From Basidioascus undulatus (taxonomy: Eukaryota): 37,765 nucleotides of DNA. Below, piece by piece: positions 16,496-28,772 of this stretch (positions are counted from its first letter, which is position 1; every line of letters starts with the position of its first letter). A program made the position numbers and the translations under genes. The stretch covers positions 1-37,765 of the forward strand of contig JTLS01000048.1 of the NCBI GenBank assembly GCA_000826855.1, written 5' to 3'. The notes beneath the pieces were generated by a model. The model was not told the DNA's origin and made no database searches. It saw only the letters and a list, made by a program, of their open reading frames with translations.

Positions 16496-17489
16496 ATGTC
16501 CGGCCGTCGGCAGCAGGTGATGGTTCAGCCCATCGTGCGTCCTGTCCCTCTTGCTCCGTTCCGGTCTCACACGCTGATCCTCCCCGCGCTTCTTTCCTTT
16601 CTGTGCACCCTTCACGCACATTCGCCATCTACCCATCTCTCTCCACCCTCCTCCCCACATTGCTTTCCCCCCGACCCGGCACGCGCCTCCTTCCCGCCTC
16701 GCTCGACAAACAGAACGTCATCTTCAAGAACCTCCAAACAGTGCGCCTGCACCTCCAGCGCGCAGGAGGACCATATGTGCTGATGGGCATGGGGCCACGC
16801 GCAGAAAACTAAGATCCAGGTCTGGCTGTATGACCACCCGGACCAGCGGATAGAGGGGCGCATCATCGTGAGTCGGAGATGGGCCGGTCGTGTGAGGGCG
16901 GAGGAGTGCAGCGGTTTGGTGCGAGGGCGCGGTGGCGTTGGGAATGTGGCTCGGAGAGGGTTGGGACCGTGGGGATGAGGGGTATGAGCGGGTCACGCTG
17001 CTGGTTGGAGGCGGCACCCACCGGAGCCCGGTTGAGAGCACGCAAAGGCGCTGCCTTCGAACTACACACTTTTCTTCTTTCGCCGCGCTTCTAAAGGGCG
17101 TGTGCTCGCGCAGTCGATCCGCAGCTGCATGTTTAGAACGATCTCGCCGCCCACACAATCTCCCTCCGCTGCACCATTTCCTGACACCCGCGTCTTCCTG
17201 TCTGCACACAGGGCTTCGACGAGTATATGAACGTTGTCATCGATGAGGCGGAGGAGGTCTTTATGGGAAAGAAGAAGGGACAGCCCCGTGTCACGCTGGG
17301 TGCGTCTTCCATGCCTTGCCCACTTACCTCAGCGCCTTCTTCCCTTTCCTTAATATCCGCTCACGGGTCTTTCTACAGGTCGGATCATGTTGAAGGGTGA
17401 CAACATCACGCTGATCCAGGTTAGCCGCGATCTCTTCATGTTAACACAGACACCTTTTACTGACACTTGGTCGTACACAGCCTGCATGA
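16496..17489 (+). CDS. SME1: Small nuclear ribonucleoprotein SmE (6 coding exons)
   Basis: MSGRRQQVMVQPI|NVIFKNLQT|KTKIQVWLYDHPDQRIEGRII|GFDEYMNVVIDEAEEVFMGKKKGQPRVTLG|RIMLKGDNITLIQ|PA*. Classic Sm1/Sm2 motifs of SmE. Confidence 0.96.
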
Positions 17490-18309
17490 GGGGTTGCGGG
17501 AGGTTGGTGACCGGTGGAGGACAGGGAGGCGGAAAGGCCTTATATTGCGCGTTCGCGGAGGCTTGCGGGAGGCCTCATGCGCGGACGTTTGATACTACAA
17601 AAGCGTGTTTGCGATAACCACAAAACCCCGGCGTATATCAGATCACCGTCTGCCGTTGAGGGAAGGCATGATCCTTCGATAGGGCCCCGCATCCGTAAGA
17701 AGTTGCTGAGGCAACGGAGAGTCGTTCTCGTTTTGAGGCCATGTGCAAGAACAACAGAAAACGAAGACGGGAGCAGGTCGATGGCAGTGATTTCGACGAC
17801 GGAGGTCACCGCGAAAGTGACCTCCACTACCCTGAAAACTTGACTCCATTTGCGAACTACAGGCGCACATGTTGCTGGTGTGACTTGAATGAAGTTGCTT
17901 TTGACGTGCTGTACTGCTGATTGCTCTTCCTGTTCCGCAGTCAGCGATGCAAGCTAGCGACAGCACGTTGAGAAGTGTAGCTGCGCTCTGACCACCTGCG
18001 CCTCGTCATAGCGCGTTGCAGCGCGTCGTGCCATCGAGAACACGAAGAAGGGCCGCTCTCGGCTCTCCTGTGCAGGGTAAAGTCTAGTGAGGTGGGGGAA
18101 GGGGAGGGGATCAGTTCCTTGCAGTGCCCCCTTCCTGCGTCCGAACACCCATCGTCCCCGTCGCCGTTGCAATCCTCGCTTTCCGTGTACTCCTCGTTCG
18201 TCGTTCGTCGCCAGTCAAGGCGACGCTTTCAATCTCTCTCGAACCCCACGCTCGCTGCTCGCTTCACTCCACTCGTTACCGCACGCTCGCTTGAATCACG
18301 TTCACCGTA

Positions 18310-24064: not shown

Positions 24065-26222
24065 TCAAGCGCGGGCAAGGTCGAGCGCGAGGCCTTGGTT
24101 GGCCAGAACTTCAGAGGTTGATGCGGAAAGCGCGATGCGAAGTGTGCGTCGAAACGCCGATGAAGAGAGTAGGCGGCGTTGACGACGCGAGGGCAAATGA
24201 CCGACAAGGCCACAAGAGGAAATATTTTCAAGTGATGGAAGTACAAGAAGAAGAGTAACGGGCCGGGAGGGAGAACAGGTGCCTCTGACAGCAAACACAG
24301 GGGTCTCCGCGAAGGGCGAACAAAGGCGAACAATGAAAGGACCGCCGAAAAGGAACAGTCCGTGGGACCTGGGCTTGGACATTGCAACGAGCGTTTTGAC
24401 ATTGATTTTAACATACATAAGGCGCTCCGCGCGCACCTGGACCTCTGCTGCATGCATGGGCATTACATTCAGTCAAGCAGCATTGACGTTCAGGATCGTA
24501 TATGGCATCTGATTGGAACAGTTTCTATGCATTATGTCACAGTCGCAGTTTAAACGTGCAAGGTTGACCATTTGCCGGCACATTATGTCCTTATTTGCCC
24601 AATCGAAAGACCAGCCGGAACTTAGTCTTAGGCCAAACTTTGCAAGTTCCTTGGCTGCCCCACAGCGGCGTTTGGTACCCATATATAATTTTAAACGAGG
24701 AGTCCATTCATGTGCCAACAGCAAGGACTGGATGGCAAGATATCCCAATGAAAGCATGCAACTGTCAAGCCGAATATGCCAAAGCGGCACTGTCCGCTGT
24801 CAAAGGACAGCAGCAAAAGTGCTGTCCATCCTTTAAGTCCCTTTATTCTGAGTCTTCCAAGCATTTATCTGAGAAGAAACATCATCATGGCTTGTTGGCT
24901 CTCTTGCACCGCTTCTTGTTGGGTGCAGGTCTGCGGGTGCCGCATATGCCGTCAGCCCAACTTCATGTGGTCAGCATGCCCCACCAGCACAAATGAGAAA
25001 GGCAGAAAAGGGATCACCTTGTGGTTGCCAGTTCATTCATCCATTCCACCTCTCCCTGCAACCTTCTCACCTTCTCATCCTGACGTATGGAGCAGTGCGC
25101 TGAGCACGCTATCGCTAGACTAGTTTGGCAAGCATCCAAGCCCCCTGCAGCCAGCATATTCTCACCTTGAATGTAGGTATGACGAAGTACATGAAATTTT
25201 GCAAAATTGAATCCGGACGATGCCACCGTTGACTTATCGCCCGGATGTTGTGCAGAGCGCGCGCGGCGCACCTCACTCAACCATGCCGACTGTTCTAGAC
25301 GTGACAGTCAGCATCTCCGACCGGAAAAGAGGATCATGGAAAATATGAGCCTTTGCGTAGTTCCGCTCTAGCTCACAGGCACTTTCAATCTCACACCAGC
25401 TTCTTATCGTTTTGAGCGCACCACTCGCTCGACCCCGTAGACTAATGCCAGTGCACTATGCTCAAGGTTCTTCCGCGACTTCTAGACCACGATAAATATA
25501 TATTGTTCTATATGCTACAATAGACTCCTACCGAACACATTTGGGGACTGGGACGGACTTGCAGCAAGCTGCTCATGAGCACCAAGGCTCAGGCGCGTAA
25601 TAATCAACAACCAGAGGTCCAAGTTCAGGTCGATATCCAAGGAACTTTGTGCTATTTTGTACTTCGGATTCAGAATACAATGCCTCTGAAGGACGGCTGA
25701 TCGGAGTAGCAATAAGGAAAGGAGTGCGGTACACGACGGTTACACGAAGCCAAGGTGTTGCGGCATGCTGTGAAGCGCCGACAGGATGAATTCACATCAC
25801 CTAAAGCAGGTCTGCACCGATTTGGGGGGTGAAATCTTGCTCGAGAGCCACCCTGCACTGATCACATACGCATGCTTATGTTGTAAAATGGTCTGATGTA
25901 ATGGGCATTCGCGAAATGCTATGTATGCGCCGCAGCTCATTCCACAAAAGCTGGATTGGGAGGCGAATTCATGCTCCCAAGACCTGTCCCAGAGGTCCAG
26001 GAATAGCTCTTCCTTTGATGTGTATGTCAGACAGCGGGGATGCACTGTTGCCGCAACGACTCGTACAATACGACAGACCTTTCAAAGTATGGGCTGCAGC
26101 TTGCCAGTGCTTTGCTGCAAGACTCAATTTGTCGCAGCGACGTCGACCTCCACAATACAGAATGCAGATATCTCAACAGGAAATATCCAATCATTCCGCT
26201 ACATACGTCCTCCCGCTGAGTA

Positions 26223-27541
26223 TCATGGAGACCGCCGGTCGACGCGGCGGTTAATGGCCCCGACCAGCGCCTTGACCAGCCGCTCGGCCGTAAGCGGCTG
26301 CTGCGGGTCGTACGGGTACGTGTCGACGATGTCTCGTACACCTCAAAATCCAATGCCCTGTCAGTTATATTCTCTGGCAGAGGCAAAGGCGGGAAGTTGC
26401 ACGGGTACGCACCCTCTTGAGCGATGCCGTCGTCGAGCTGCTGCAGGTACTCAGTAGCTTGAGGGTCTGTCATAGGCGTCGCGGAGAATTAAAGAAGGAA
26501 AGATAGGATAATAAAGTCATAAAGGATACCTGAGCCTATGTGTATGAACTGGAAGGCGGCGCGAAAGTCAGTCGGTCTTCCTTGGACGTAGCATCAGAAA
26601 AGGCCGCGACGGACCTGCACGCCCAGCTGCGTGAGGGGACATTTGAGCTCGTCCAGCTGCTGGTAAAGCCAGGGGTGCATAGTTTCAGCCTAAGCAGAAT
26701 ACCTGAAAACACAACCTTCACGAACACGAGCAACTTTGGGCAAGTACTCAAGTGCTGACGGCCTGTAGTCGGCGCTCTCTTGACCGTCCTGCGCGTGATG
26801 TGAGCTTGGGTTTAAGGATGAGGCATTTTGGAAACACCTACTGTTATGACAATCTACCAAGCAAATTCACACTGTCAGTCTACATGGTTGCGCCGCTGTG
26901 ACCCGGGAGAGCGTCACGCACAATGTTGAGCGGCTTGGGCTTAAGCTTCTCCACCTTCCGGGCGTCCTTTCCCTTTGCCTCGGCGTCCTTCCAGCGCTTA
27001 ATATCGTCCAAATAGTCGTCGGTGATCTTCTCCTTCAAGCTCGTCCCTATCGGTGTGCCGTTCCTGGGAGATACCTTGGAGAAGAGGGCGGCGATCTTCT
27101 GGGCGTCGGCGTCCTTGACGTGTTTGCTCTGCAGCCGTGAGGTCACTGAGTCCTAGCCGACTTAGAGGGATGAGGTGGTTTGGCAGTGCACCGAGTTCAT
27201 GAAGTAAAGGTCAACTCCCTTCTGTATAGCCCAGAGGACGAGCCCGAAAGCGTTCAGCCACTTCCCCGCCACCCATTCCGTTTCCGTCTGAATGCAATAT
27301 GCACGCACCTTGTCCCACTTCAGCGCCTCGTTGACGAACTCCTCAAGCAGGGTCTTCGCGTGCCCCCAGCGTGTTGCTTGGCCCTCCATGGTCCCCATCT
27401 GTAAAAGAAGTAGGGGCATCTAATTCAGCGGCATTGGAGATAGACAACGTCTGTGAAGAAAGCACGGACGCTGCCGCTGTCGTCGAGCAGGAAGCAGGTG
27501 TCGAACAAAGACAGCATGGCGAGGGGATTCTCTGAAGACAT
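26223..27541 (-). CDS. Fungal stand-alone von Willebrand factor A (vWA) domain protein, intact MIDAS
   Basis: Spliced: MSSENPLAMLSLFDTCFLLDDSGS|MG..RWGHAK..LKWDK|KGVDLYFMNS|..LFSKVSPRNGTPIG..KPLNI|IVIT|DGQES..KVAR|QLDELKCPLTQLGVQ|FIHIGS|DPQATEYLQQLDDGIAQE|GVRDIVDTYPYD..LVKALVGAINRRVDRRSP*. MIDAS DxSxS, T and TDG are all present. Confidence 0.88.
26467..26529 (-). other. 63-nt intron with U12 (minor spliceosome)-type signals
   Basis: GTATCCTTTatgactttattatcctatctttccTTCTTTAATtctccgcgacgcctatgaCAG, phase 1. Removing it restores FIHIGS-DPQATEYL. The intron itself is well supported; its U12 class is tentative. Confidence 0.5.
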
Positions 27542-27955: not shown

Positions 27956-28772
27956 ATGGTGAACTTTGTCACGAAGCTGTTCTCGCCCCGCTCGTCGTCG
28001 TCTGCACCCCCTGCCACGCAATAGGCTGCTTATGCCCCATCCGGCTCTTCCGCATATCCGTTCGACCTATCCTCCAGCGCCTCAGAGTACCTTCACGTCC
28101 CCACTCCCTTCTTACGCTCAAGCCTCCTCTTCTGACAAGAAGCACTCCTCTCCCGACGCGAAGGCGCCCCGGCCACAAGCAATGCAGCCTGCAACGCAGT
28201 GGTCGACCTCCCTCGGCAGGACCGCTTCAGGACGGGAGAACGCTCTCGCCCTCCTCACTAAGTATAGCGTTGTGCTCGTCGTGGATGACTCCGCTCCGGT
28301 ACGAGCTTCTACAACATGCACACCTTGCTTGTCTAATCCTGGGGTCCGCAGATGGCAGAGCACTGGCACCAGGTCCGGGACGTGCTGCGGAACATCGTGG
28401 TTGAGGCGGTACGGTACGACAAGGACAGCATTGGTAGGCCTCGGGTTTTCCCCTTCATAGGAAGTTGTGCTAAGTATAACCCGGCTCTCTAGACATCGTC
28501 TTCCTCAACCTGTGCGAGGCGCGAACTTGCGGTACGCGGTGCCACTCCCAGTCACAGCGCTACCGGCTATCTTCCCTCAGTGAGGTTTCACTGACGCCTA
28601 CTTTTCAATCAAGACCTCAGAAAATGCAATGAACCTCTTCTCCCAGATGAAGCCGATCGGCGAGGTCACGCTGTGCGTTCTCGGCTCCCAGTCTCAGTTC
28701 CTCGACTCGTATGTGCTCCGGGGGGATGTGAAGCGAGGCGATAAACTTGGGGCGGTATACGAAGACTTGTGA
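27956..28772 (+). pseudogene. Truncated/degenerate vWA paralog, divergently oriented
   Basis: GRENALALLTKYSVVLVVDDSAP|MAEHWHQVRDVL..AVRYDKDSI|DIVFLN..|..MNLFSQMKPIGEVT..FLDSY aligns with the neighbouring vWA gene. MIDAS is altered (DDSAP). The ATG 27956 frame stops at TAG 28022-28024 (ATG 28032 would bypass it). The frame ends at TGA 28770-28772 with no ITDG or GxQF half. Confidence 0.7.

Follow-up and report, generated by a model that had tools for sequence, protein, structure and literature searches.

A U12-like intron in a vWA gene of Basidioascus undulatus that is very probably a weak U2-dependent intron, often retained

The vWA gene and its eighth intron

The window (the whole stretch of DNA that was analysed, 37,765 nt, contig JTLS01000048.1 of assembly GCA_000826855.1) carries a vWA gene with nine introns on its minus strand and, on the plus strand, a vWA paralog oriented head to head with it. 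The features of this locus are as follows.

27541 to 26223, minus: vWA gene, nine introns
27470..27541, minus: exon 1, from the start codon; ends in the DxSxS motif of the vWA domain
27469-27399, 27308-27222, 27191-27129, 26921-26854, 26841-26789, 26725-26660 and 26614-26549, minus: introns 1-7, phase 0, U2-type
26530..26548, minus: exon 8, 19 nt; 26548/26615 joint present in an RNA-derived contig
26529..26467, minus: intron 8, 63 nt, phase 1, GC 0.38
26521..26531, minus: donor of intron 8, exonic AG and then GTATCCTTT
26496-26488, minus: TTCTTTAAT, the only YTRAY of intron 8; carries an in-frame TAA
26467..26469, minus: CAG acceptor of intron 8, fixed by homology
26413..26466, minus: exon 9, by homology; the RNA-derived contig extends over its first 27 nt
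26342..26412, minus: intron 9, GTGCGT donor and unusual GAG acceptor, as predicted from frame and homology
26223..26341, minus: exon 10 with the stop codon, by homology
27956-28710, plus: vWA paralog in head-to-head orientation; expressed, with three introns spliced out

The 236-aa product of the spliced model matches PF00092-type homologs from end to end and carries the MIDAS motifs DxSxS, T and ITDG; alignment with phmmer to full-length fungal vWA proteins gave E values of about 1e-40 to 1e-50. The vWA homologs (49) were reached via the paralog's 44-aa exon, while searches with the 69-aa exon returned nothing, or two spurious proteins, and Pfam found no vWA match in single exons taken alone. 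Fungal single-domain vWA proteins (PF00092 on P0006, P0017 and P0020) share the end-to-end alignment and the three motifs with the product described here, which differs from them in having no proline-rich N-terminal extension. A canonical paralog is found on another contig (G000:C1790), and most of the nine intron positions of the gene are absent from it, only one coinciding exactly between the two; the consecutive phase-0 introns that this paralog mostly lacks suggest heavy intron turnover. Intron 9 has an apparent need for a GAG acceptor; its branch motif is followed immediately by a nearer CAG. Just downstream of the vWA gene (25668-26006) are repeat pieces that are 80-95% common with two other contigs, and a neighbouring alanine aminotransferase has its best single-domain matches in Microbotryomycetes (63-65% identity), which points to a basidiomycete host, probably one of Pucciniomycotina, with no close sequenced relative among the matches.

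Intron 8 has GT-AG ends and starts with GTATCCTTT, the sole RTATCCTT within the window, after an exon that ends in CAG, i.e., with AG at positions -2 and -1. Its length is a multiple of three, so that its presence does not shift the frame; because of a TAA in frame at 26491-26489, the intron is nevertheless needed for the full protein, the product having 192 aa if it is retained and 236 aa if it is removed. Compared with 11 homologs (13 aligned), the spliced model is free of gaps over the junction. Judged from this alignment, intron 8 is real, its predicted removal yielding a 236-aa fungal vWA protein, and the original prediction that the vWA reading frame requires the intron is borne out. An alternative AAG acceptor 9 nt downstream was rejected, as it would delete three aligned residues.

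The same prediction had described a U12-type donor at 26529, a branch-like motif and phase 1, and all three are confirmed. The motif TTCTTTAAT is one mismatch from TTCCTTRAY; its As lie 24 and 23 nt from the end of the intron, 18 nt separate it from the CAG, and 21 nt lie between its end and the intron end. Two points had gone unmentioned, namely the exonic AG and the fact that the mismatch in TTCTTTAAT removes one of the two Cs. The genome's introns were described by an ab initio model built from 432 kb of the genome, which gave 180 high-confidence introns, is unvalidated and misplaced at least one donor (that of SmE). A G, absent from intron 8, is present at +5 in a fraction of 0.82 of these introns; the intron at 27191 (GTGCAC) of the same gene also lacks it and is spliced. 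The further statement that intron 8 lacks a CTRAY branch typical of its neighbours was overstated: CTRAY occurs in three of the eight other introns of the gene and in 96 of the 180 introns genome-wide, which makes its absence unremarkable.

Removal of intron 8 and the strength of its splice signals

Contigs assembled from run X3 (labelled 'DNA?') skip GT-AG introns and are therefore RNA-derived. In one of these (contig 7; 644 nt, depth 552) all seven introns upstream of intron 8 are removed at the predicted coordinates, with exons 2-7 between them, and the sequence then continues unbroken from 26548 to 26440, i.e., with intron 8 retained, an observation that comes from one run and one assembled contig. 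The RNA thus bears out the predicted junctions of introns 1-7, while splicing of intron 8 was not seen. A 12-nt micro-exon (26853-26842) is also confirmed by RNA. A simulation reproduced the 644-nt length of the contig and placed the end of the retained-only 31-mers at 26440 if a spliced or exon-skipped form coexists. The contig end at this position is only a hint that some molecules have intron 8 spliced, the matching 5' break being absent. Cover by X3 ends at 26440 on exons 9-10, and the gap beyond carries no weight.

Taken at face value, retention in the sole RNA-derived contig, at a depth of 552, is what would be seen if intron 8 were effectively dead, its donor having decayed in a fast-evolving vWA copy so that its removal is rare or does not occur at all, while the gene mostly gives a truncated product or is a pseudogene in the making. 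The GAG acceptor needed by intron 9 points the same way, as does the head-to-head paralog, in which the third spliced joint shifts the frame and the C-terminal half was not found up to 29200, and which is itself probably an expressed pseudogene. Exons 9 and 10 of the gene described here are, however, intact and align over their full length to relatives, and the contig end at 26440 is the merge point for a spliced or skipped 31-mer path, with the same weight of a hint. A dead intron is accordingly considered unlikely.

Measured against the 180 ab initio introns, the donor of intron 8 scores near the 5th percentile and its branch between the 1st and 5th percentiles, and its GC is lower than that of every one of them. 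The commonest distance from branch to 3' end in these introns is 19-23 nt, and the TTAAT of intron 8 lies at -23. The original caveat that TTAAT could act as a U2 branch point was well placed, TTCTTTAAT being a likely weak U2 branch point at the usual distance. Branch motifs with at most one mismatch from TTCCTTRAY are found in six of the 180 ab initio U2-type introns. With the 5' end of the genome's U1, the donor can form 6 of 11 pairs, of which five are contiguous (-2 to +3) and none fall at +4 to +7. Intron 8 therefore has the attributes of a U2-type intron: GT-AG ends, a donor that pairs with U1 and, at the usual distance, a yUnAy branch. GTGCGT is the donor met most often in the genome (41 of the 180 ab initio introns).

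Very probably, then, intron 8 is a common U2-dependent intron whose signals are weak and resemble the U12 consensus ('minor-like'), and which is inefficiently removed and often retained. U1 would be bound through the exonic AG and GTA, the five contiguous pairs offsetting the missing +5 G, and U2 would use TTTAAT, which lies about 23 nt before the intron end, as is usual for branch points in this genome. With donor and branch both near the bottom of the genome's range, splicing would be slow or incomplete; in a large share of transcripts the intron would remain and translation would end at its TAA, after 192 aa instead of 236. The likeness to U12 introns may have arisen from a U2 donor of the rare GTATCC form with a T-rich intron body after it. 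Inefficient removal by the major spliceosome fits the retention seen in the one contig. The same retention can also be held against a weak U2 intron, since slow removal is a trait of U12 introns as well, according to passages of one study (PMC3584512).

Minor-spliceosome components and U12-like signatures in the genome

An RNA-model search of 2992 contigs, in which 40-49 of 474-1091 candidates were scored, gave no matches to U12, U11 or U4atac at E<=1. The U6atac model gave three matches, all below the cut-off, two of which are U6 at 80 bits while the third has no Rfam match, so that none of the four minor snRNAs was found. U1 (2 copies), U2 and U6 are present in the genome, U1 and U2 having been detected by the same tool as was used for the minor snRNAs. 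Because few candidates were scored, over 2992 contigs, and U1 itself fell below the cut-off (42 against 69.5 bits), a U11 or U12 of divergent sequence could have escaped detection. The two U1 genes (G000:C700 and G000:C2593) are divergent, both lying below the Rfam cut-off, and have a T for the usual G at position 11. Several of the matches to U2 come in pieces (model positions 7-84 and 88-185; G000:C1982, C1270, C1631, C974, C867 and C2235), and may represent either intron-bearing U2 genes or fragments.

An exon-by-exon family search for proteins, with DIM1 and CRIPT as the only eukaryotic positive controls, gave no match to zf-U11-48K (the SNRNP48 finger), CCDC84 (CENATAC) or Ubiquitin_4 (25K), and two matches to zf-SCNM1, both below the cut-off. 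These four families are taken here, in part by assumption, as markers of the minor spliceosome. The DIM1 family is represented by one gene, of the TXNL4A type, and TXNL4B was not found. An intact-looking CRIPT ortholog lies on another contig (G000:C1591), no other minor-spliceosome part having been found. CRIPT is a protein of the minor Bact complex but is not exclusive to it: parts of the literature describe its co-purification with major complexes and its other roles (PMC11874965), its presence in Caenorhabditis elegans (PMC7782867) and the lack of U12 splicing in that animal (PMC2846911).

The motif RTATCCTTT occurs 257 times genome-wide, compared with 199 for the reversed control and a Markov expectation of 205-333, and is thus no more frequent than chance, contrary to the excess of U12-type donors that a working minor spliceosome had been expected to leave. 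A full signature, defined as RTATCCT, CCTTRAY and YAG or YAC in two length ranges, gave 36 and 21 raw matches against 13 and 7 in the reversed controls (about threefold), or 26 and 18 distinct starts (44) against a Markov expectation of 17-22 each. No recognisable intron, including AT-AC introns, was present among these 44 sites when they were filtered and inspected by eye; the starts read by eye included those on C2795 and C2892 (of the 26 short-range ones) and that on C2935. The two most convincing sites with the full signature were rejected as candidates, one (G000:C377) running antisense in a decayed LTR retrotransposon and the other (C50) lying within no recognisable gene.

A looser signature, GTATCCTT with YTRAY and YAG, has 43 starts, of which four break clear reading frames: intron 8 and introns in genes for INO80, an MFS transporter and a PP4-like phosphatase. 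The coding-flank filter is insensitive (it flagged two of the 43 starts and missed intron 8 and the MFS and PP4-like introns), and reading by eye was added. In the other three introns the branch point is CTGAT or CTGAC, and a U12 branch is absent.

G000:C1026:2082-2014 (L131/L097), minus: INO80 intron, exonic AG and then GTATCCTTC, CTGAT branch
G000:C1357:15841-15903 (L134), plus: PP4-like phosphatase intron, exonic ATA and then GTATCCTTT, CTGAT branch
G000:C2289:2977-3042 (L142), plus: MFS transporter intron, GTATCCTTC donor, CTGAC branch

Under an independent-position model with an assumed 35,000-50,000 introns, 0.9-1.3 such donors would be expected against the four real ones, a mild and unexplained excess, which a model of this kind may understate. 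Exonic AG followed by GTATCC, with a U2 tail, has 31 starts, one of which belongs to a clear intron within a metallo-beta-lactamase motif. Further along, the PP4-like phosphatase gene contains an in-frame stop, and it may be in decay. INO80, PPP2C, PPP4C and vWA-named genes are all absent from the human/mouse table of minor-intron genes, in agreement with the original caveat that the host of intron 8 is not a classic minor-intron gene. The INO80 intron was considered as a relic and rejected, the table holding only INO80D and searches of the literature and of a partial supplement being empty.

Ancestral minor-intron positions were examined in three genes, SmE (SNRPE), TRAPPC2 and UFD1, the first of which lies inside the window.

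16496-17490, plus: SmE (SNRPE) gene
16535-16713, plus: first SmE intron, after an ATC codon, donor GTGCGT (U2 type); human has its U12 intron at this position
17300-17378, plus: later SmE intron, U2 donor GTGCGT; contains an exact U12 branch look-alike, TTCCTTAAT, at 17346-17354

Positions were mapped from three exonic bases, phase, alignments to solved homologs (two genes) and a presumed human exon structure. A PDB search with the SmE N-terminus gave no match, and for this reason the SmE mapping depends in part on that presumed structure. All three positions hold U2 introns: GTGCGT in SmE, where the human and mouse SNRPE donor is ATC followed by GTATCCTAC; a phase-1 GT-AG intron with donor GTCAGT in TRAPPC2, against an ATATCC donor in human; and, in UFD1, a phase-2 intron that starts with GTACGT, against a U12 donor in human and mouse (human and mouse donors from entries in the supplement of PMC6717393). 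Since these ancestral positions are fully converted, relic donors have not generally lasted in this genome.

These data bear on the idea of a retained minor spliceosome, here a live and divergent one that removes intron 8 slowly. The U12 donor consensus, the selective retention of intron 8, the presence of CRIPT and the limited sensitivity of the searches would all agree with it. Against this, no minor snRNA was found even though the U6atac model picked up U6; five diagnostic proteins (CENATAC, 48K, 25K, SCNM1 and TXNL4B) were not found; the SmE, TRAPPC2 and UFD1 positions are converted; no AT-AC or full-signature intron was recognised among the 44 signature sites; CRIPT occurs in major complexes and in C. 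elegans; and passages of three surveys report no convincing minor introns in Basidiomycota (PMC10639083, PMC11347168, PMC2846911). Such a spliceosome is highly improbable. Equally hard to credit is the more specific picture of a poorly sampled Pucciniomycotina lineage that keeps a shrunken, highly divergent minor spliceosome, with CRIPT retained and snRNAs too divergent for the sensitivity of the search, for a few GTATCCTT introns (intron 8 and the INO80, MFS transporter and PP4-like ones), slow removal throttling the vWA protein; if true, a divergent minor spliceosome in this fungus would be the earliest case of functional minor splicing in Dikarya and would overturn its accepted loss.

Origin of intron 8 and its place among U12-like introns

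The canonical paralog has a GTGCGT intron (G000:C1790, 1372-1442) 4 nt downstream of the position of intron 8, and a distant paralog (G000:C502) has a GTCCGT intron 10 nt upstream of it. The near coincidence of these introns (+4 and -10 nt) possibly reflects intron sliding. Among metagenome loci, in a set that is biased to transcripts and intron-poor genes, the motif was matched in 76 of 80 and an intron at the site was seen in none.

The exact 9-nt donor, phase 1 and a branch motif one mismatch off the consensus are also what an ancestral minor intron might leave if its donor had been kept after loss of the minor spliceosome and its removal had passed to the U2 machinery. In Phakopsora (Pucciniomycotina), one U12 and one U4atac RNA have been described as possible remnants (PMC2396436), which lends such a relic some plausibility; a literature search on minor splicing in Pucciniomycotina and Rhodotorula found nothing relevant. 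The paralog introns 4 nt downstream and 10 nt upstream are of U2 type, the position being unconserved within the genome, true ancestral positions are fully converted, and the human/mouse table holds no vWA-named gene. The exonic AG also points to a major origin: in the sections of PMC11347168 that deal with it, AG at -2/-1 is given for 3% of minor and 32% of minor-like introns, the CC of the branch marks use of the minor spliceosome, and AG together with a lost CC marks minor-like introns that use major factors. A relic of this kind is very unlikely. The third possibility raised in the original prediction, chance, taken together with splicing by U2 machinery, is supported by the minor machinery that was not found, the converted positions and the weak U2-type signals.

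U12-type GT-AG introns of animals, plants and early-diverging fungi share with intron 8 the GTATCCTTT donor, phase 1 and a TTYYTTAAY-like branch. Intron 8 differs from them in its exonic AG, its branch without CC, its branch distance of about 23 nt (an optimum of 11-13 nt is given for U12 introns in passages of PMC3584512) and its pyrimidine-rich 3' half, as well as in its host, which is not a known minor-intron gene, its position, unconserved among the paralogs, and the machinery that was not found. In other words, intron 8 has the U12 donor and has neither the branch CC, the short branch distance nor the avoidance of AG, and the genome yielded no minor snRNAs among the candidates scored and no other minor introns at the three ancestral positions examined. 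Four defining features having been tested and not found, intron 8 is not regarded as a U12 intron. What was found corresponds largely to what the original prediction had named as speaking against it: the searches gave no minor snRNA and none of the five diagnostic minor proteins looked for, and there is no excess of RTATCCTT donors.

Several observations remain on the other side of a weak U2-dependent intron. Intron 8 is retained in the RNA-derived contig, CRIPT is present, there are four GTATCCTT donors where about one was expected, the raw full signatures are about three times as numerous as in the reversed controls, the snRNA search had limited sensitivity, and the nearest sequenced relative among the matches has 65% identity.

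The closest published counterparts are the 'minor-like' and 'hybrid' introns of basidiomycetes (Olthof et al. 2024, PMC11347168), which, in the portions of that paper that describe them, have the same U12-like donor, AG at -2/-1 and a degenerate branch without CC in genomes without minor snRNAs. Entries in its supplement give minor/minor-like/hybrid counts of 0/19/15 for Microbotryum violaceum, 0/34/84 for Cryptococcus neoformans and 3/132/197 for Melampsora larici-populina, and list no minor snRNAs for these three genomes except one U6atac entry in Cryptococcus. The class label given to intron 8 is by resemblance to those introns, and the RNA-derived evidence of selective retention is additional here.

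Intron 8, as a weak U2-dependent intron, is a new example of this known minor-like kind, which is to be expected in any intron-rich basidiomycete. It carries the caution that an exact U12 donor alone is insufficient to identify a minor intron, the converted SmE intron serving as a control within the same window, and its selective retention indicates that a U12-like donor can be costly in the absence of a minor spliceosome.
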